Below, piece after piece: positions 2,939 through 15,758 of a stretch of DNA of 64,000 nt. Location of the stretch: NCBI RefSeq assembly GCF_904830955.1, contig NZ_LR882970.1. One strand, written 5' to 3'. The position numbers and the translations under genes are program-made. The notes below the pieces were generated by a model that worked only from the letters and a program-made list of their open reading frames with translations, had not been told where the DNA came from and did no database searches. Origin of the DNA: Planktothrix tepida (GTDB lineage: Bacteria; Cyanobacteriota; Cyanobacteriia; Cyanobacteriales; Microcoleaceae). Position 1 is the first letter of the stretch; each line of letters begins with the position of its first letter.

Positions 2939-3667
2939 TTGATCCAGAAAACCATTATGCTCATCCTTGACTCTCATCAATCTTCTGCAAAAATGTCCAT
3001 CCCGACAAAGGAAACACCCACTAATTCTGATGTTTCCCCCTGGTTAGCTTCCTTGGTTTACCCCTTGGGACGATATTTTGTTTTACCGTTCTATTTCAAA
3101 TCCCTGGAAGTCATTGGCCAAGAACATCTTCCCAAACAAGGCCCTGTTATCTTAGCACCCACCCATCGTTCTCGTTGGGATGCTTTGATCGTTCCCTTTG
3201 CGACGGGTCGCCATGTCACCGGACGAGATTTACGATTTATGGTGACAGTGGATGAAATGAAAGGACTCCAAGGCTGGTTTATTCGTCATTTAGGAGGGTT
3301 TGCAGTGAATCAAAAACACCCGACTATTGCCACCCTCCGTTATGGGTTAGAATTACTCCACCAAGGAGAAATGTTAGTGATTTTTCCAGAAGGTAATATT
3401 TTTCAGGATCATCAAGTTCACCCGCTCAAACCGGGACTTGCTCGTTTAGCACTACAAGCGGAAACCAGCTATCACAATTTAGGGATTAAAATTGTACCGA
3501 TGTCCTTACACTATGATCCGATTATCCCCCATCAAGGTGCTCGTGTTCAAGTTAGGATTGGTTCGCCCTTATCGGTTCTTGATTATTCTCAAGGTTCGAT
3601 TAAGAAAAATGCTCAATCTCTGATGCAAGATTTAGAATTTGCTCTCCATCAAATTGATCAGCAATAA
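2939..3667 (+). CDS. 1-acyl-sn-glycerol-3-phosphate (lysophospholipid) acyltransferase, PlsC family
   Basis: Acyltransferase block I H(x4)D (THRSRWD) and block III FPEG (FPEGNIF). Confidence 0.65.
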   Translation: MIQKTIMLILDSHQSSAKMSIPTKETPTNSDVSPWLASLVYPLGRYFVLPFYFKSLEVIGQEHLPKQGPVILAPTHRSRWDALIVPFATGRHVTGRDLRFMVTVDEMKGLQGWFIRHLGGFAVNQKHPTIATLRYGLELLHQGEMLVIFPEGNIFQDHQVHPLKPGLARLALQAETSYHNLGIKIVPMSLHYDPIIPHQGARVQVRIGSPLSVLDYSQGSIKKNAQSLMQDLEFALHQIDQQ

Positions 3668-3723
3668 CCGTTATAATCAAGATTAAGAGTCAGCCATATG
3701 TTGTTTGGATTAAATCAATACGA

Positions 3724-4164
3724 ATGAACTCTAGCTTGAATTTCCAGCCCGGTCAGATTGTGGGATTAAATCATCTCAACCGTTGTTTATATGCAGAAGT
3801 CATTCAAGTTGTCGAATTTCGGGGAGTGTGTTGGGTACGCCCTTTGATGTTAATTGAAAGGTTAGCCGATCAAGATCAAGGTGATTATTTGGATGTTCCT
3901 AATACCCCAGAATCCTTTATTTTGTACAATTTGCAACAAAGCCCTGATTTAATTTGGCCGACTCAGTTATTTAGAGCCGCTTTAGATACGGAGGTGATTC
4001 CCTTCTTAGCTCAGTTAGACGCTCCAGATGTCAATTTTCCGGGAATAAAACCCGTTAATGCTCGTTCTGCTCACCAACAATTGCGAGAGTTTATTCGTCA
4101 GGTTTGGCAAGCTTATCCTGATGTTTTTCAGTCTGTTGATCATCCTGAAGTTGATGTTAAATGA
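3724..4164 (+). CDS. Hypothetical protein
   Basis: 146-aa ORF, no recognisable motif. Confidence 0.4.
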   Translation: MNSSLNFQPGQIVGLNHLNRCLYAEVIQVVEFRGVCWVRPLMLIERLADQDQGDYLDVPNTPESFILYNLQQSPDLIWPTQLFRAALDTEVIPFLAQLDAPDVNFPGIKPVNARSAHQQLREFIRQVWQAYPDVFQSVDHPEVDVK

Positions 4165-4251
4165 ACTGAAAAACACGTTTAGTAAGCACCGTCAACCTAA
4201 TCGCTGAAAATATTTTATTTGGCTATATCAAAATTTTAAACCGTGAACTCA

Positions 4252-4446
4252 TTAATGGCTAGAAATTAACCGAATACGACCTGCATCCATTTCTTCCATT
4301 AAGAGTTCTAAGGCTTCATAATCCACATCTGAAATATAACCGAGTCGGGTTAACTCAGTGTTAATCGCATTCTCAATTTCAGGGGTCAGACATTTGAAAT
4401 AGAGTGCTTTTTCAACCAATTTACGAATCATATTCGTTGCTGACAT
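4252..4446 (-). CDS. Small hypothetical protein (64 aa)
   Basis: ORF only; acidic helical sequence. Could be spurious. Confidence 0.25.
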   Translation of the reverse strand: MSATNMIRKLVEKALYFKCLTPEIENAINTELTRLGYISDVDYEALELLMEEMDAGRIRLISSH

Positions 4447-4918
4447 GGCAGGTACAGAGAACTCAGATAGCTTTATTGTCTTATAAACTGTTATTTTGAC
4501 TTGTGATCACATCCTTTGATTCTGCGTGATCCCTATCACTTAATTTTCAGGAACTTTATTGATAGTTATTCTGTCCCCAATCCATCCTTCTTAAGGAATA
4601 TTTTTTAGTGTCATTGGATACATTTTACTTAAAATCTAGCTTCAAAAATTAATCGGTCTTTTGTTTCGGTAACAACTATTTTATGACACTTGAGGCTCGA
4701 AATTGCTGTATTAATTGTTACTCTTTTCTGTAAAAGAAAAACGGTACTCTAGCCTAGTCTTATTACCCAATCAGTCTGATCACAACTCCTACTGAAAACA
4801 ATAACATCCTGATTTCGGTAACATTTATACTTTCTGGTCTAGGTTAACCCCTCAGTTTCTGCTACAATGAGCCAGTAGAATTATCGATTAAAACCTTAAA
4901 GATTGTCCTTTTATACAG

Positions 4919-8830: not shown

Positions 8831-11092
8831 ATGTCAAAACAAATTATTATCGCAGAACAACAACGCATCGCGGCGGTTTTTTCAGAAGATCAAATTCAAG
8901 AACTGGTTGTAGCGACCGGAAATCACCAAGTCAGTGATATTTATCTGGGTATCGTTGAAAATGTCCTACCAGGGATTGATGCAGCATTTGTCAATATTGG
9001 AGATCCTGAGCGCAATGGATTTATCCATGTTTCCGATTTAGGGCCATTACGATTAAAACGAACGTCTGGTTCCATCACCGAATTATTAACCCCCCAGCAA
9101 AAAGTGCTGGTACAGGTGATGAAGGAACCGACGGGAACTAAAGGCCCCCGGTTAACTGGAAATATTTCCTTACCCGGACGGTATTTAGTGTTAATGCCTT
9201 ATGGCAGGGGGGTAAATTTATCTCGGCGCATTCGTTCAGAAACAGAACGCAACCGTTTAAGGGCTTTAGCAATTTTAATTAAACCCTCTGGAATGGGGTT
9301 ATTGGTGCGGACAGAAGCCGAAGGCATGGCTGAAGATGCGATTTTAGAAGATTTAGAAAGTCTGCAAAAACAATGGGAAGTGATTCAACAAGAAGCTCAA
9401 TCTTCCCGCCCTCCGGCTTTGTTAAATCGAGATAATGACTTTATTCAACGGGTGCTGCGAGATATGTACAGCACCGAAGTTAACCGAATTGTGGTGGATA
9501 ACAGCCCGGCGGTTAAGCGGGTCAAACAACATTTGATGAATTGGAGCGTCGGAAAAGCACCTCAAGGGGTCTTAATTGATCACCACCGGGAACGAATTCC
9601 GATTTTAGAGTATTTCCGAGTTAATGCAGCCATTCGAGAAGCCTTAAGACCCAGAGTTGATTTACCATCAGGCGGTTATATTATCATTGAACCGACGGAA
9701 GCTTTAACGGTGATTGATGTTAACTCTGGCTCCTTTACCCGTTCGGCGACATCACGAGAAACCGTGTTATGGACAAATTGTGAAGCCGCCACGGAAATTG
9801 CCCGTCAATTGAGGTTACGCAATATTGCTGGGGTGATTATTGTGGACTTCATTGATATGGATTCCCGGCGAGATCAATTACAAGTCTTGGAACATTTTAA
9901 TAAAGTTCTCAAAGCCGATAAAGCCCGACCCCAAATTGCTCAATTATCGGAATTAGGGTTAGTAGAATTAACCCGTAAACGCCAAGGCCAAAATATTTAT
10001 GAGTTGTTTGGGCGAACCTGTGCCACCTGTGGCGGTTTAGGTCATACCGTTCATCTACCGGGAGAAATTGAACTCGAAATCGGAGAACCCCCCGCCGAAC
10101 GAGTTGTCCTCACCAATAATCGGATTGTTCCGCCACCAGCCAGTAGTGAATCCCCAGAACGACCTAGTTTACGCACTCCGATTTCCCCCTATGAACCCAC
10201 TTCTCGGGAAGAACCCGAAGTCGTTGAATTTGATGCGTCTAATAATTTCCAAGAGTTAGAACTGCTCAACCATCCCAGTTATCAAGATATTGGAACCAGT
10301 AACGCCCGTCGCCGCCGTCGTCGAATTCGGGATATGGATTCGTTAACGCGAGATGAAGAAACCCCCCGGACTTCCCTGCGGATGTCTCCTCCGGTTCAAT
10401 ATGGCGAGTCTCGTTCGGATATGGGGGGATTCAGTGAAGGGTTCTCCGCCCGAAGCGGATTCAGTGAACGCAGTCGTCCCACAAAATCCGAAATTATTAA
10501 ACCGCCTGTGGAACCCCCGGAAGTTGTTTCGGTGGAAATGACCCCAGAAGAGCAGGAAATGTATGCGTTGATGGGGATTTCTCCCTTGATGCTCTCCCAT
10601 CAACAGGTGAAAAACCCTCGTTCGGTGATTGTTACCGTTCGTTCCCCTGGGGAAGCCCCCGTGTCTCCCTCAACCCTCATCGATGAAGACTATGACGAAC
10701 CCGACATTCCTGGGATTTCCATAGGGGTCACAGACCGGATTATTCCTGAACGGACGATTTCTGAACGGATTATTCCTGAACGGACGATTTCTGAACGGAT
10801 TATCCCCGAACGGTCGATTTCTGAACGGATTATCCCCGAACGGTCGATTTCTGAGCGGATTATTCCCGAACGGACGATTTCTGAACGGATTATCCCCGAA
10901 CGGTCGATTTCTGAGCGGATTATTCTGGAACGAGAAACACCAGAAGTTGAAGAACCGGAACCCACCCCAGAATTTTCTATTTTGGAAACCGATAATGAGG
11001 ATTTCTCAGAAGAGTCTTCTGACTCAGACCATGAACCGGGTGAACCCATTATTCGTCGCCGTCGCCGTCGGTCTTCTGCGGTTACAGAGTAA
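8831..11092 (+). CDS. rne: Ribonuclease E (cyanobacterial type: S1 domain + catalytic domain + Arg-rich non-catalytic C-terminus)
   Basis: N-terminal S1/5'-sensor/DNase-I-like catalytic region (VDNSPAV...IIIEPTEALTVIDVNSG...ARQLRLRNIAGVIIVDFIDM). Zn-link CxxC (CATCGG). Arg-rich segments ARRRRRRIRD, and the terminal RRRRRRSSA nonapeptide that recruits PNPase in cyanobacteria. Confidence 0.9.
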   Translation: MSKQIIIAEQQRIAAVFSEDQIQELVVATGNHQVSDIYLGIVENVLPGIDAAFVNIGDPERNGFIHVSDLGPLRLKRTSGSITELLTPQQKVLVQVMKEPTGTKGPRLTGNISLPGRYLVLMPYGRGVNLSRRIRSETERNRLRALAILIKPSGMGLLVRTEAEGMAEDAILEDLESLQKQWEVIQQEAQSSRPPALLNRDNDFIQRVLRDMYSTEVNRIVVDNSPAVKRVKQHLMNWSVGKAPQGVLIDHHRERIPILEYFRVNAAIREALRPRVDLPSGGYIIIEPTEALTVIDVNSGSFTRSATSRETVLWTNCEAATEIARQLRLRNIAGVIIVDFIDMDSRRDQLQVLEHFNKVLKADKARPQIAQLSELGLVELTRKRQGQNIYELFGRTCATCGGLGHTVHLPGEIELEIGEPPAERVVLTNNRIVPPPASSESPERPSLRTPISPYEPTSREEPEVVEFDASNNFQELELLNHPSYQDIGTSNARRRRRRIRDMDSLTRDEETPRTSLRMSPPVQYGESRSDMGGFSEGFSARSGFSERSRPTKSEIIKPPVEPPEVVSVEMTPEEQEMYALMGISPLMLSHQQVKNPRSVIVTVRSPGEAPVSPSTLIDEDYDEPDIPGISIGVTDRIIPERTISERIIPERTISERIIPERSISERIIPERSISERIIPERTISERIIPERSISERIILERETPEVEEPEPTPEFSILETDNEDFSEESSDSDHEPGEPIIRRRRRRSSAVTE
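10736..10935 (+). repeat. In-frame tandem repeat inside the rne C-terminal region: 30-nt unit (cggattattcctgaacggacgatttctgaa) x ~6.5. It encodes RIIPER(T/S)ISE decapeptide repeats.
   Basis: Direct reading: units at 10736, 10766, 10796, 10826, 10856, 10886 and a partial unit at 10916; only T/S and synonymous differences between units. Confidence 0.9.
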
Positions 11093-11147
11093 GCTGTCCT
11101 TTTCCAACAAACTCAGCGTTGAAATCGCCTCTAAGGGTTAGAGGCTA

Positions 11148-11230
11148 GGGTGTGGGGGGAACAAAGTGAAGTAGAGAGTATCAATGATGTTATCCTCTCT
11201 TCCTGTGTCCCTACACCCCTCTTATTTTTG
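11148..11230 (+). terminator. Putative compound hairpin + U-tract terminator downstream of rne; possibly a bidirectional terminator shared with the convergent gene
   Basis: gggtgtgggg (11148-11157) pairs with ccctacaccc (11209-11219) with one G-U pair. An inner agagag/ctctct hairpin sits between them, followed by cttatttttg. Confidence 0.35.
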
Positions 11231-11710
11231 AACTTCGATAATTTCTGTATCTCCAATTTCTTGATCATGAACCATTAACATTTCATGACCATTTCCTGTT
11301 AAACCCACTCGAATTTCATGGCGTCCTGGTGGCAATTCGGGGAGATAATACCAATTTCCATAAATTCGGGTTACTTTTTTGCCATTAATATAAAGATGAG
11401 CGTGTCCTTCTTGATAGGAACTCATGGCTTGATTGACATTTTCAGGTGTTAATTTAAAATTCGTTAATTTTAACTCTAAATTCCATCCTTGACGGGCATC
11501 AGGATGGACAATTAAATCAACGGTTGGAATGGGTTGACCCGGAGGAATCGTCACGGTTTTATGATGACCAGAAGAGGAATGGTGCTGTTGTTCATCGGCT
11601 TGGACAGATAATAGACCCAATCCTGTAAAATGACTCAAAACCATTCCCAATAGTAGAGAAAATCCCAGCACAACGTTTTTGTCTTTTCTCAGATTAAATT
11701 GCCAGTTCAT
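11222..11710 (-). CDS. Secreted/periplasmic His-rich protein (signal peptide; QQHHSSSGHH, HAH, GHE). Putative copper-responsive protein transcribed downstream of petRP.
   Basis: N-terminal hydrophobic signal sequence; His-rich; lies directly downstream of the petR-petP pair; promoter carries the same 26-bp motif as petJ. Confidence 0.5.
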   Translation of the reverse strand: MNWQFNLRKDKNVVLGFSLLLGMVLSHFTGLGLLSVQADEQQHHSSSGHHKTVTIPPGQPIPTVDLIVHPDARQGWNLELKLTNFKLTPENVNQAMSSYQEGHAHLYINGKKVTRIYGNWYYLPELPPGRHEIRVGLTGNGHEMLMVHDQEIGDTEIIEVQK

Positions 11711-11782
11711 GAAATCAAGACCCTATATCAAGAAAGTGTTTTTCCTTTGTTCTGGTCTTGATTTCTCACCCTCATGTTATTC

Positions 11783-11808
11783 TTGTCAAAAGACAGTTTG
11801 TCAAACTT
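11783..11808. promoter_or_regulatory. Operator-like motif TTGTCAAAAGACAGtTTGTCAAACTT upstream of the His-rich protein gene. Candidate PetR (BlaI-family) binding site.
   Basis: Near-identical 26-mer (24/26) also present upstream of petJ at 13766-13791. Contains TGTC-N4-GACA and TGTCAAAC half-sites. Confidence 0.5.
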
Positions 11809-11880
11809 ATAGGAAATTCAAAAATGTTAGCTAAAAATCCTTTATCGGGTAGCTAATCACTTTTTACTATCCTCTATTTT

Positions 11881-11915
11881 CTGTTCCCTGTTCCCTGTTC
11901 CCTGTTCCCTGTTCC
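11881..11915. repeat. STRR-type heptamer tandem repeat (CTGTTCC x5; rc GGAACAG)
   Basis: Direct reading: ctgttccctgttccctgttccctgttccctgttcc. Confidence 0.9.
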
Positions 11916-11928
11916 CTCTTTCCTAAAT

Positions 11929-12774
11929 TTAAGAATAATGAAAAGGAACTGTAATCCAAGGTAAACAAACCCAGAACAGTAACATCCACATCCACCATCC
12001 CCAGGTTAAAGTATCAGAATCTTCCGCTAAAATAGCATCGATTCGCTCTCCTAAACGACTACTCCGAATCGAACAACTAAACGATAAATTGCAATAAGTT
12101 GGAGATTTAAACGGAGCTTTGGCAAGATATAATAAAGATTCTGCTAACACTAACGGATCGACTTTTTGGGTTGCATAACGGTCAGCCCGCATTTCTCTTA
12201 ATAACAGTAATTCTTGCCATAGATTCTCTGTATTGGGTAGCCAAACTGTGAAAGTTTTTAACCAACCTAAAATACAAAACCAAAAGGTATCTCGATAGTT
12301 TAAATGAGCTTGTTCATGGGCAATAACGGCTTCTAAATGGAGGTCATCTAAGGTTTCTAATAATCCTCGACTCACCACTAATTCCGGTTGCCAAAACCCA
12401 ACTTGAGCACTGTAGGGAAAATCATCTTGTAAAATTCGGGCTGTTTTTCCCATCACCACCTGTTGAGACAGACAATCAATTCGGTGTTGAGACTGACACA
12501 ATTGACTCAGTAACTGAACCCCTGTGAACAGTCCCCAAGCGACAAACCCCACAGCTAGTAAATAACTAAACCAACTCGCTTGGAGTCCTAACATTTCCCC
12601 TTTTGTCCCCATCGACAACACCGCCAACGCCGTCATCAACAATACTAACGGAGGACAAACAAATAAAAATAGAGATTTTTGCCAACGTTGATGCCAACTT
12701 CTTCCTTGAGGTAAAGGCATCACTCGTAAACCCAGCGCCACTAAGAGTGCTAATAAAATAATCATTAAGTGCAT
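11929..12774 (-). CDS. petP: BlaR1-family M56 membrane metalloprotease; PetP-like copper-sensing protease
   Basis: Multi-TM protein with HExxH (AHEQAHL) in the M56/M48 context. Start overlaps the stop of the upstream BlaI-like repressor. Adjacent to petJ. The PetR/PetP pair is known to control the cytochrome c6/plastocyanin switch in Synechocystis. Confidence 0.6.
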   Translation of the reverse strand: MHLMIILLALLVALGLRVMPLPQGRSWHQRWQKSLFLFVCPPLVLLMTALAVLSMGTKGEMLGLQASWFSYLLAVGFVAWGLFTGVQLLSQLCQSQHRIDCLSQQVVMGKTARILQDDFPYSAQVGFWQPELVVSRGLLETLDDLHLEAVIAHEQAHLNYRDTFWFCILGWLKTFTVWLPNTENLWQELLLLREMRADRYATQKVDPLVLAESLLYLAKAPFKSPTYCNLSFSCSIRSSRLGERIDAILAEDSDTLTWGWWMWMLLFWVCLPWITVPFHYS

Positions 12775-13196
12775 TATTGTTGTCCCTCCCGTTGACGACG
12801 AATGGCATCCAGACGTGAGGCAATGGCATCAATTTGTTCTAAACTTGCTGTATCCAAGCTATCGGCAAAAGAAGCCACTACATCAGGATTACCAATCGCT
12901 AAAAATCGATTTAAACGATCATAAGCCAAAATAGCCTGCGCTTGTTCACGGGTGACTAAAGATTGCCAATAAAAAGCACGTTCCTGTTTATTACAGGTTA
13001 ACCAACCTTTATCGGTTAAACGGCGTAAAACTGTTGTGACTGAAGTATAAGCTAATTCTCGATTAGGGTCAGCTAAAATTCGTTCATGAACATCTTTAAC
13101 CGTGGCAATACCCAAGTCCCAAACGATTTCTAGGATTTCCGTTTCTAATGGGCCGAGAGACAGTTGGCGAGGACGATAATCTGGCAAAGGGGCCAT
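12774..13196 (-). CDS. petR: BlaI/MecI/CopY-family winged-helix transcriptional repressor; PetR-like
   Basis: 140-aa penicillinase-repressor-family fold (LSLGPLETEILEIVWDLGIATVKDVHERI...YTSVTTVLRRLTDKGWL). Translationally coupled to the BlaR1-like gene. Next to petJ. Confidence 0.6.
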   Translation of the reverse strand: MAPLPDYRPRQLSLGPLETEILEIVWDLGIATVKDVHERILADPNRELAYTSVTTVLRRLTDKGWLTCNKQERAFYWQSLVTREQAQAILAYDRLNRFLAIGNPDVVASFADSLDTASLEQIDAIASRLDAIRRQREGQQ

Positions 13197-13367
13197 AAGG
13201 AATTAAGAGAAATACAACTAATTCGTTAGTTTAGTGGATGATTTGAACAGAAATCAAGGATTGGTGATGTTTCGACATGAAGATCTAATAAAGATACACC
13301 TCTCACCCTTTAATTGATCCAAGGGTTTGAGAGGTTTAAGGGTATTAAAATTTGGGATTAATTGATA

Positions 13368-13709
13368 TTACTTTGGCCAACCTTGATCGGCTTGAGACAA
13401 CACATAAGTCGCAACATCAGCAATTTGTTCTGGTTTTAAACGACCTTTGAAAGCTGGCATGGCATTTTTCCCGTTTGTAACTTGGGCTGTGATTGCCTCA
13501 ATACTATACATTCCATATTTTTCGAGATCTGCTTTTTGTAAGGTATATTTAGCATTGACTAGATTTTTTCCACCAGCATGACAAGATGCACAATTTGCTG
13601 AAAATACTTTACCTCCATTTGCTACATCTCCAGCCAATGCACTAGGAACAACAATTAAAACAGCCACTGCAATCATTAACAAGGCTGAGATTAACTTCTT
13701 TTTCATCAC
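13368..13709 (-). CDS. petJ: Cytochrome c6 (cytochrome c553) precursor
   Basis: Signal peptide + CxxCH haem motif (CASCHAGG) + conserved c6 C-terminal region ([13 protein letters not shown]...[10 protein letters not shown]). Confidence 0.9.
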
Positions 13710-13765
13710 TATTCTCCTCTGAGGAAATTAAATCAATCCTTCTATCGTGCAAAACAGATTTCTGG

Positions 13766-13791
13766 TTGTCAAAAGACAGGCTGTCAAACTT
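13766..13791. promoter_or_regulatory. Operator-like motif TTGTCAAAAGACAGGCTGTCAAACTT in the petJ promoter region (57-82 nt upstream of the petJ start). Candidate PetR site.
   Basis: Shared with 11783-11808. Confidence 0.5.
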
Positions 13792-13874
13792 CCAATTTAA
13801 AACCGTTTACATCTAGGCTGTGTAAGCTGCATACTACGGCACAAATAAATATTAAAAATTATTAATCAAATCGC

Positions 13875-15758
13875 TTAATCTGGAGTCGGAGAAATCTGTT
13901 TCATGACTTCAATATTAGCTGGCTTAATACTTGATTTTGCTTCTAAATCTTTAACTTGATTGGATTTTAGTTTGTCTAGCCAATTCACTAAAATCGTTTC
14001 GACATCATCAATAATCTGTTCTTTATTTAATTCTATGCGTAACTGATCTACAAACTTTTGAGTTAATTGTTTTTGTAACTGCATAGCTATAAAATCAGGG
14101 GGTTTATTTTTACCTTCCTCCAGAGATTTTTTAGGGTTTTCTGAAATAGCGATCGCAATTTTTTGGGCTACATTATTAGCAACTTGTTGGGGAAGATGAC
14201 GAACACCTGGAATTTTATTTAACCCTTTATAAATGGGGGATTTTTGGATGGATTGAGAAACTTGATAATGTACATAAGCTTCTAATTCAGGATGAATACT
14301 GGGTAAAACCTGAGTAATTGTAAGTTCAACAATCCGATTAGGAATTCCTGGGGGAACTTGTTGAGTCAGGTCTACAAAATCGAGGGCTTGATAGGAGGAA
14401 GCAGGATTACCGATTAAATTTTTAATCGCTCCTTTTTTCACAAAAGATTGAACTTGATTAACGCCTTGATTGACCAAAACTTGAATTAATTCTTGAGCAA
14501 AACTATAGATAAATTTTAATTTTAGATAATCAATAGTAGGCTGTAATCTAGGAAAATTAGCTCGATTCAAGTGATAAACGGCTGAAATAAACCGCAAGAA
14601 CAATAATTTAGGAATTAATAAAAACAAATAATACCATAATTTTAAAATAGCTTCCCTTAATGTCAACTCCGGTTGACGACGACGAAGGGCATAGATCTCC
14701 ATTAAAAATGTTAAAAAGAATAAGGTAATCCAAGGTAAATCAATCAACCAAAATCGGTTAACAAATTCACCATCTATTCCTAAATGTCGAAAATAAAATA
14801 ACTGCATTAACTCTTGCATTTCAGCTTCAAAAAATTGAAGTTCAGTTTCCCATCCATATTGTTCTAAGTTTTCAAGGCTCCAAAAAGTGTTAAACGCTTG
14901 TTTAGCGGATCGATCTGACCAAATTAACTCTGGGGCTAAAAAATTTAAGAGTTTAATTTGATATAAAAATTTTAAGGTGGGTGTCAGTCGAGTTGTAAAT
15001 TGGGGATCTCGACCATAAATATGATCAATAATTCGATATTTAATTTCCGTTAATTTCCCTAAATTAGGTTGTAATTGTAAGGGATAATTACGGTCAATCA
15101 GTTCTATGCTAATTTGACGAATTTCTTTCAATAAACTCTGAGATTTAGGGTGATTTAATCCGTTGTATTTTAAATTAACCTTTAATTCAGAAACTTTTCT
15201 TAAATAGTTTTGGCTAAGTCGATCCGGTTCAACCCCTTTAATCAGGTCATAGGTTAAACTAGGTTCATAAAAAATAATTAAAAATCGAATATTTTGATTA
15301 AAAAAAAGTAATTGCTTTTTCCAGGTTTTCTGATTAAAATAAACAGGACTCCAAAACAATTCTAAGGCTTGCTGAAAATTATTAGCCTTGACCTGATTTT
15401 GAAAACGTTTTTGAATTTCAGCTAAGGTTCCAGATGAATTAAGAACCGGAAAGGGAGGATTTTTAATGAATAGTTCTACACTGGATGTCTGAATCTGCTC
15501 TAAGGCTAGTTTAACTTGTTGAGATTCAATCCCAAATTGATTAATCGTTTTTTCAAGTTGATCAATTTGTTGTAAATATTGATTTTGAGGCGTATTTTCA
15601 GATTGTTGTTGATGTTGATCTATTTTTAAATAATATTCCCGAAATTTTATGTAGCTTAAATCAAAAATAACTAAACAGAAATTAGCAGTGACAACTAGAG
15701 CTAGAATTCGAGCCGTGAGTAGGGATAAACCACTGGATGGAGAAGATGACAATCGCAT
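13875..15758 (-). CDS. Hypothetical protein with N-terminal and central TM segments (627 aa)
   Basis: ORF with hydrophobic segments. Start is 19 nt downstream of the stop of the upstream flippase-like gene. Confidence 0.4.
   Translation of the reverse strand: MRLSSSPSSGLSLLTARILALVVTANFCLVIFDLSYIKFREYYLKIDQHQQQSENTPQNQYLQQIDQLEKTINQFGIESQQVKLALEQIQTSSVELFIKNPPFPVLNSSGTLAEIQKRFQNQVKANNFQQALELFWSPVYFNQKTWKKQLLFFNQNIRFLIIFYEPSLTYDLIKGVEPDRLSQNYLRKVSELKVNLKYNGLNHPKSQSLLKEIRQISIELIDRNYPLQLQPNLGKLTEIKYRIIDHIYGRDPQFTTRLTPTLKFLYQIKLLNFLAPELIWSDRSAKQAFNTFWSLENLEQYGWETELQFFEAEMQELMQLFYFRHLGIDGEFVNRFWLIDLPWITLFFLTFLMEIYALRRRQPELTLREAILKLWYYLFLLIPKLLFLRFISAVYHLNRANFPRLQPTIDYLKLKFIYSFAQELIQVLVNQGVNQVQSFVKKGAIKNLIGNPASSYQALDFVDLTQQVPPGIPNRIVELTITQVLPSIHPELEAYVHYQVSQSIQKSPIYKGLNKIPGVRHLPQQVANNVAQKIAIAISENPKKSLEEGKNKPPDFIAMQLQKQLTQKFVDQLRIELNKEQIIDDVETILVNWLDKLKSNQVKDLEAKSSIKPANIEVMKQISPTPD

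Follow-up and report, generated by a model that had tools for sequence, protein, structure and literature searches.

In this work, we focused on a 26-nt motif that occurs twice in a 64,000-nucleotide stretch of the genome of the cyanobacterium Planktothrix tepida (contig NZ_LR882970.1; the whole 64-kb stretch is referred to below as the window), once upstream of petJ, the cytochrome c6 gene, and once upstream of a gene encoding a secreted His-rich protein. We consider both copies, with a probability of roughly 0.85, to be activator-type (petJ) sites of PetR, the regulator encoded between them, which would thereby control both genes. Judged by sequence comparison, the repeated motif is the activator-type PetR box already published, i.e. 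known and not new. Box and regulator have been documented since 2021, and the incremental novelty lies in the His-rich secreted protein as a conserved extra PetR-box target and in the hint of a wider copper-limitation regulon.

The two copies, TTGTCAAAAGACAGTTTGTCAAACTT at 11783-11808 and TTGTCAAAAGACAGGCTGTCAAACTT at 13766-13791, share 24 of 26 positions. Each precedes a minus-strand gene (the His-rich open reading frame, ORF, and cytochrome c6, respectively), with the same orientation relative to it; the exact sequences read in the window bear out the preliminary description of this DNA as to positions, degree of match and orientation. In gene orientation, the box of the cytochrome c6 promoter (activator/petJ type, minus strand) is AAGTTTGACAGCCTGTCTTTTGACAA, and the second PetR box, located before the His-rich gene (minus strand), is AAGTTTGACAAACTGTCTTTTGACAA. 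When both strands of the window were searched with the 26-mer allowing up to three mismatches, these two matches alone were recovered, 0 being expected from 100 dinucleotide shuffles. An independent repeat finder stopped at exactly the same 26-nt boundaries for both copies, which are therefore not the edge of a longer duplication. Likewise, a scan of the window with the box pattern gave two matches at up to two mismatches, and at three mismatches just two additional ones, i.e. chance level. Finally, an Rfam scan of positions 10900-14100 (E up to 1) returned a single chance small nucleolar RNA match, so the motif does not belong to any known RNA element.

Both boxes have the structure AAGTTTGAC-N5-GTCTTTTGACAA in gene orientation and fit TTTGACNNNNNGTCNTTTGAC with 0 mismatches, i.e. 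a TTTGAC-N9-TTTGAC repeat enclosing GAC-N5-GTC. A search for the palindromic core GACA-N3-TGTC located it at 13775-13785 in the petJ box (GACAGGCTGTC) and at 11792-11802 in the box of the His-rich gene (GACAGTTTGTC). The third half-site in each box completes the TTTGAC direct repeat and is at the same time a consensus -35 hexamer. An inverted element followed by a direct repeat had been proposed beforehand: a dyad and the TTTGAC repeat are indeed present, but the dyad equivalent to those of BlaI/CopY-type operators is GACA-N3-TGTC and not TGTC-N4-GACA. No GAC-N5-GTC or GACA-N3-TGTC core other than those of the box pair was found in the window. GAC-N5-GTC thus occurs twice, both times inside the boxes, versus 5.9 occurrences expected from shuffles, a scarcity which may mean that spurious PetR cores are avoided, or may be noise due to the small numbers.

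This architecture matches the PetR motif derived by Garcia-Canas et al. 2021 (bioRxiv 10.1101/2020.07.31.226407 / PNAS), in which a GAC-N5-GTC core is common to petE and petJ promoters and TTTGAC-N9-TTTGAC is the extended motif specific to petJ promoters (bioRxiv 10.1101/2020.07.31.226407). The box of the Synechocystis petJ promoter is aacTTTGACAGATTGTCTTTTGACtt, followed by CATAAT (supplementary sequences, bioRxiv 10.1101/2020.07.31.226407), and that of the slr0601 promoter is aagTTTGACGGGCTGTCTTTTGACcc, with a transcription start site (TSS) mapped 31 nt past the box (bioRxiv 10.1101/2020.07.31.226407). PetR shifts both the petJ and slr0601 fragments in electrophoretic mobility shift assays; copper represses the two genes in the wild type, whereas they stay off when petR is mutated and are expressed constitutively when petP is mutated (bioRxiv 10.1101/2020.07.31.226407). 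In this characterised system, the activator-type box lies at the -35 region, its core being located about 37 bp before the TSS; according to the authors, more PetR is required at petJ-type sites, and repressed petE promoters contain just the GACA-N3-TGTC core, between -35 and -10 and without the direct repeat (bioRxiv 10.1101/2020.07.31.226407). The window boxes are nearly base-for-base alike to the Synechocystis petJ and slr0601 promoter sequences, and the AAG 5' flank of the box in the slr0601 promoter is common to the window boxes.

In order to describe the promoters, we aligned 62 promoters having a box with at most one mismatch, taken from 80 related loci and from the window. Their consensus is AAgTTTGACAgcnTGTCTTTTGACa, after which a conserved nAnnAT follows at 17 nt. 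The promoter-proximal repeat forms a perfect TTGACA at the canonical -35 position, and the GACA-N3-TGTC palindrome is centred about 8 bp upstream of it. The register of this alignment places the TTGACA of the petJ promoter (third half-site, consensus -35) at 13767-13772 on the minus strand, separated by a 17-nt spacer from a predicted weak -10, CACGAT, at 13744-13749 (minus strand), the nAnnAT being conserved at a fixed distance. In the His-rich gene promoter, TTGACA lies at 11784-11789 and the predicted weak -10, AGAAAT, at 11761-11766 (both minus strand), the latter drawn from the 62-promoter and orthologue alignments; His-rich orthologues have AAAAAT, AGAAAT or ACAAT at this position. TSS are predicted near 13737 for petJ and 11754 for the His-rich gene, because the register equals that of the Synechocystis petJ CATAAT and of the mapped slr0601 TSS; the distance from box to -10 and TSS in these two promoters matches that of the window, where the TSS are deduced positions. 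Such a geometry fits a low-copper activator site overlapping or abutting -35, not a classical repressing operator. A petE promoter at one of the related loci (L061) provides a repressor-type counterpart: it has the core GACAGCCTGTC alone, identical to the window petJ core, about 135 nt upstream of petE (3423-3800), and this core sits immediately upstream of a -10-like CATAGT, which is the position described for petE.

The genes located around and between the boxes were further assigned using Pfam and NCBIfam models. petJ (13368-13709, minus strand) was identified with the equivalog model NF045930 'cytochrome c6 PetJ' (159.4 bits, cut-off 135), and its product also matches Pfam cytochrome c families. 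Its real start is probably the ATG at 13706, given that the GTG at 13709 is unconserved in relatives and that the NCBIfam PetJ model aligns from residue 2. With the start so moved, the petJ box lies 60-85 nt upstream instead of the 57-82 nt first reported, its upstream location being unaffected; the distance of 73-98 nt given for the other box relative to the His-rich gene ATG is correct. petR (12774-13196, minus strand) encodes a BlaI/CopY-family winged-helix regulator of 140 aa (Pfam PF03965, Penicillinase_R, 3.8e-28, 98.6 bits, cut-off 22.6), which matches the CopY_TcrY model below its cut-off. PetR homologues with 59-96 % identity adjoin box-bearing petJ genes in other cyanobacteria.

petP (11929-12774, minus strand) encodes an M48/M56 membrane protease of 281 aa with the HEXXH motif HEQAH at residue 153; Peptidase_M48 scores 27.4 bits (cut-off 20.3) and M56 remains below its cut-off. 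Its length of just 281 aa leaves it without a BlaR1-type C-terminal sensor domain. The petP ATG overlaps the petR stop as TAATG (12772-12776). PetP is characterised by four transmembrane (TM) helices and by a TM2-TM3 loop with two conserved Met residues, M53 and M58 in the Synechocystis protein (bioRxiv 10.1101/2020.07.31.226407). In the window protein, a hydropathy scan gave three clear N-terminal TM segments and a Trp-rich C-terminal segment below threshold, and the TM2-TM3 loop contains M55 and M61, whose spacing differs from that of M53 and M58. The PetR/PetP pair is described as present in genomes with both petJ and petE (bioRxiv 10.1101/2020.07.31.226407). As far as sequence features go, the genes between the box copies are a typical petR/petP pair. 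No terminator-like structure was predicted between petJ, petRP and the His-rich gene (13197-13367 and 11809-11928), and read-through from a PetR-activated petJ promoter into petRP would amount to positive autoregulation.

The distribution of the box was then assessed in 80 loci with His-rich homologues from different species, a box being defined by at most two mismatches among 15 specified bases. It lies directly upstream of the His-rich gene, in gene orientation, at 45 of the 80 loci; at 19 further loci, the His-rich gene follows a co-directional petJ and/or a gene for a secreted tetratricopeptide repeat (TPR) protein of about 300 aa whose promoter has the box. In total, the box directly precedes the His-rich homologue or heads a petJ/TPR/His-rich cluster in 64/80 loci. 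No box was detected under this definition at 15 loci, two of which have a three-mismatch box at the usual distance. The 865 kb surrounding the His-rich homologues contain 60 boxes with at most one mismatch, of which 59 are on the gene strand, and shuffled sequence gives 0-1. petRP was found within 6 kb at 17 of the 80 loci and petJ at 22. Within the Planktothrix clade, the second box forms an invariant island in the alignment of eight orthologous His-rich promoters, and the petJ box is invariant in petJ promoters whose surrounding DNA is diverged or unalignable. These data, by comparison among genomes, constitute strong evidence for a functional and ancient membership of the His-rich gene in the box-controlled regulon. 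The preliminary description had assigned both genes to one regulon controlled by the intervening petR, a proposal supported by the PetR/PetP pair between the copies, by the match to the published site and by box conservation before homologues of both genes across cyanobacteria.

The secreted TPR protein (e.g. L015:4869-5804) has a full-length match in 16 loci (L015, L008, L009, L021, L025, L032, L036, L037, L049, L053, L054, L059, L060, L062, L071 and L072). In 15 of them, the TPR gene directly precedes the His-rich gene; the exception is L071, where it lies downstream of the His-rich gene, after petJ. It is mostly found downstream of petJ, resulting in box-headed petJ-TPR-HisRich clusters. 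Locus L071 also contains a gene for a 143-aa secreted protein (4034-4465, minus strand) behind a box at 4549-4569 (minus strand), whose predicted mature N-terminus starts, by eye, with His (…VAA|HNVK…), reminiscent of His-brace copper proteins. A tblastn search of the window for TPR, DsbD_2/FRD or related genes gave none.

The second target in the window (11222-11710, minus strand) encodes a secreted protein of 162 aa consisting of a signal peptide, a QQHHSSSGHH linker and an FN3/Ig-like beta-sandwich with an invariant EGHAHLY. The family alignment revealed a signal peptide, a variable His-rich linker and a domain with invariant H50, D71, WNL, EGHxHL and H142. The AlphaFold2 model has a pLDDT (predicted local distance difference test) above 90 for residues 50-162, and fold searches with this model returned generic FN3 folds alone. 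The closest homologue (95 % identity) is from Planktothrix mougeotii, and the family comprises at least 581 confirmed genomic matches in a one-genome-per-species collection. No Pfam or NCBIfam family was above threshold; the commonest Pfam match in the family is DUF2846, below threshold (18.5 bits for the window protein, cut-off 34.3). The label DUF4399, used by some databases for homologues, was rejected: the window protein does not match it, and 11 of 30 family members do so with E no better than 1e-3. A sequence search of the PDB matched just the low-complexity His tract. Most likely, the protein binds or handles metal (copper) in the periplasm or lumen, which is the weakest step of our interpretation and is held with a confidence far below that given to PetR control of the two sites. 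We infer that the gene is a further, apparently unreported PetR-activated target and member of the copper-limitation regulon.

The proposed mechanism follows that of Synechocystis, in which the membrane protease PetP is inactive when copper is scarce and PetR accumulates (bioRxiv 10.1101/2020.07.31.226407). At both window boxes, PetR would bind the GACA-N3-TGTC palindrome and the adjoining TTTGAC repeat, the bound element overlapping or abutting the -35 of two promoters with weak -10 hexamers. Binding would turn on petJ as well as the His-rich gene, which has its own promoter at a distance of 2 kb. When copper is available, PetP would degrade PetR and both promoters would fall silent.

Several other explanations of the repeated motif were considered. 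The preliminary description saw in it a dimeric BlaI/CopY-type operator, and to this extent it stands, as a BlaI/CopY regulator (PF03965) adjoins the motif and the motif equals the published PetR site; in the characterised system, however, this is an activator site and not a repressing operator. A classical repressing operator would mean that PetR blocks the -35 of both promoters until copper-triggered PetR degradation derepresses them. BlaI, MecI and CopY are established repressors, and the box covers a consensus TTGACA -35, a position where a protein could occlude RNA polymerase. Yet Synechocystis petJ and slr0601, with exactly such a box, are silent in the petR mutant and constitutive in the petP mutant, repressed petE promoters have the core alone between -35 and -10 without the direct repeat (in the paper as in the L061 example), and copper induction of cytochrome c6 would be physiologically backwards, so we regard repression as very unlikely. 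A different regulator, or a promoter module independent of PetR whose place beside petRP is coincidental, is equally improbable in our judgement: although His-rich homologues often carry the box at loci without petRP within 6 kb, trans-acting regulators need no linkage to their targets, PetR binds fragments with this very sequence in vitro, and regulation of the Synechocystis genes behind it is lost when petR or petP is mutated.

A variant of PetR control, and not an alternative to it, is that PetR binds the palindrome alone, centred near -43, the TTTGACA being a plain sigma-70 -35 and the 26-mer a composite. This is a possible arrangement which we favour less than binding to the entire box. 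In 62 promoters, the proximal repeat equals the -35 consensus TTGACA exactly and is separated by the canonical 17 nt from a -10-like hexamer, and it is missing from repressor-type petE sites; nevertheless, the distal half-site also has a TTT prefix (TtTGAC), which makes a true 15-bp direct repeat, and the single T between GTC and TTTGAC is invariant in the 62-promoter alignment. Moreover, the authors read a TTTGAC-N9-TTTGAC repeat, and the need for more PetR at petJ-type sites suggests extra protomers. The last explanation is chance likeness, or a functionless relic of some duplicated or mobile repeat: filamentous cyanobacteria commonly have short AT-rich repeats, and a heptamer array, CTGTTCC, occurs at 11881-11917 near the second box. 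Against this, 0 matches were expected, the similarity ends exactly at the 26-mer, and the box is conserved across genera at orthologous positions in a fixed orientation; the shuffles, the strand bias and the 80-locus conservation have effectively refuted this explanation, whose probability is close to nil.

Some observations weigh against the PetR-activation reading that we prefer. The role of PetR here is assigned by homology to one experimentally studied species, and the activator role of the window sites likewise by homology to Synechocystis. Both window TSS are predicted positions, and a generic sigma-70 scan calls no promoter at either box, because the -10 hexamers match weakly. No plastocyanin gene (petE) was found in the window by tblastn, so the repressor arm is outside this view. 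The published Synechocystis PetR regulon consists of four genes, none of which resembles the His-rich protein by description (bioRxiv 10.1101/2020.07.31.226407); since nothing similar belongs to this four-gene regulon, it is comparative genomics that supports the membership of the His-rich family. Fold and sequence searches yielded no functional assignment for this protein.

To gain insight into the wider distribution of the box, metagenome contigs of unverified taxonomy were scanned in an unbiased way with the pattern TTTGAC-N4-TGTCTTTTGACA, which gave at least 120 contigs and at least 135 sites; some single matches must be due to chance. Among the matches listed, the first downstream ORF encodes PetJ at 27 sites, a membrane protein of about 400 aa (DsbD_2 plus ferric-reductase-like) at 19 sites, a TPR protein at four and a His-rich protein at three. 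Other recurring box-linked families are TonB-dependent receptors, ExbB, PepSY-TM, an MbnP-family protein, an HMA-domain protein, DsrE-like proteins, OprB-type porins and ABC transporter components, exact boxes preceding such genes on metagenome contigs L081-L200 (e.g. L146:3282-5390, L192:3814-4464, L179:3479-4510, L193:393-584 and L121:4001-5440). The DsbD_2/ferric-reductase-like protein, second commonest first ORF behind the box among these matches, joins a DsbD_2 domain with HCxxMCGP at its N-terminus to a ferric-reductase/MsrQ-like domain (Pfam) and is not known as a PetR target; it occurs at L071:4578-5789 (minus strand), at L010:5877-7061 (plus strand) and at the 19 metagenome sites (e.g. 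L086, L099 and L109). A Gly/Ile-rich membrane protein of about 105-120 aa with Pfam GLTT repeats and His-rich termini also recurs directly behind the box (L117:6083-6104 and downstream; L111, L112, L120, L142, L148, L154, L159 and L160). It might correspond to the Slr0601 family, and none of the database names searched links the two. In some petJ promoters, and often among the 27 PetJ sites, the PetR box occurs twice in tandem, the copies being spaced by 73 nt and preceding the ORF by 62 and 135 nt (L081:703-724 and 776-797; also L089, L090, L101, L138, L164, L175, L176 and L199).

The recurrence of copper- and uptake-related families suggests, from gene neighbourhood, that the box drives copper-acquisition functions in many cyanobacteria. 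With somewhat better than even confidence, we propose that, outside Synechocystis, the PetR box controls a conserved copper-limitation regulon much larger than the four known genes. Its core would be petJ, the secreted TPR protein, the EGHAHLY His-rich protein and the DsbD_2/ferric-reductase-like membrane protein, to which TonB-dependent receptors, ExbB, PepSY-TM, MbnP-like and HMA copper-binding proteins and porins would be added according to lineage. The cytochrome c6 switch would thus be coupled to dedicated copper acquisition and handling, in which the His-rich protein would bind copper in the periplasm or lumen.

Among known systems, the closest is PetR/PetP of Synechocystis sp. PCC 6803, which is alike in regulator family, overlapping petR-petP pair, box architecture and presence of the box upstream of petJ. 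The window differs from it in that petJ, petR, petP and the second target lie side by side in one direction, and in that the second, putatively activated target is a protein other than Slr0601/Slr0602. The slr0601-slr0602 operon, the only other known PetR-activated target, likewise represents a second promoter with a petJ-type box before a functionally uncharacterised, cyanobacteria-restricted gene. Slr0601 is a small protein with two transmembrane helices and Slr0602 a coiled-coil protein (bioRxiv 10.1101/2020.07.31.226407); identity of the window His-rich protein with either was rejected on these descriptions, as its one hydrophobic segment is N-terminal and of the signal type, and its domain is all-beta. 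No Planktothrix genome is among the 169 genomes analysed by Garcia-Canas et al. (bioRxiv 10.1101/2020.07.31.226407).

More distant relatives were also compared. The CopY cop box and the BlaI/MecI operators of Firmicutes are TACA-Nn-TGTA-type dyads. These systems share with the window a winged-helix dimer on a short ACA...TGT dyad and a regulator whose abundance is set by a BlaR-type protease. They differ from the window in its GACA/TGTC half-sites, 3-nt spacer and extra half-site overlapping the -35, in the lack of an extracellular sensor domain in PetP and, by analogy with the Synechocystis sites, in the probable outcome, i.e. repression there and activation at a PetR petJ-type site. The window box was therefore rejected as a cop box or BlaI-MecI operator, its dyad being GACA-N3-TGTC with a direct repeat and homologous sites acting positively. 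The Chlamydomonas CRR1 regulator and its copper response element (CuRE) of CYC6 follow the same logic, copper scarcity causing an activator to turn on cytochrome c6 and genes for copper assimilation; they differ by the SBP domain, the unrelated GTAC-core motif and the post-translational control of plastocyanin.

Regarding published targets, reviews up to 2026 name petE and petJ alone, a commentary on the Garcia-Canas paper adds slr0601/slr0602, and a genomic-context study of petR gives petP, comB and petJ alone as neighbours. No prior report of the His-rich family as a PetR target was found in the literature covered, which left out subscription journals, so 'unreported' is provisional.

Additional features of the window were noted. 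The CTGTTCC array at 11881-11917 is a perfect heptanucleotide tandem array of 5.3 copies that takes up most of the space from the petP stop to the second PetR box, and is a repeat resembling the short tandemly repeated repetitive sequences (STRR) typical of filamentous cyanobacteria. A tandem repeat with a 30-nt unit (10736-10932, 6.6 copies, 92 % matches) is contained in the 3' portion of the ORF at 8831-11092, which encodes 753 aa and is RNase E/G-like by eye; this repeat encodes the decapeptides ERIIPERTIS/ERIIPERSIS. The 627-aa ORF at 13875-15758 (minus strand), which adjoins the petJ promoter on its upstream side, had no Pfam match at E up to 0.01.

The box before petJ adds merely another species to the known cases, and the value of the finding lies in the second copy. 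The latter gives an uncharacterised, conserved cyanobacterial family a regulatory context, namely induction under copper limitation, and suggests that the PetR regulon is under-described because it was defined in a single strain. Copper acquisition and delivery to plastocyanin in cyanobacteria are still poorly understood. The list of box-linked genes (His-rich, TPR and DsbD_2/ferric-reductase-like proteins, TonB receptors, MbnP and HMA proteins) would make this question directly testable.

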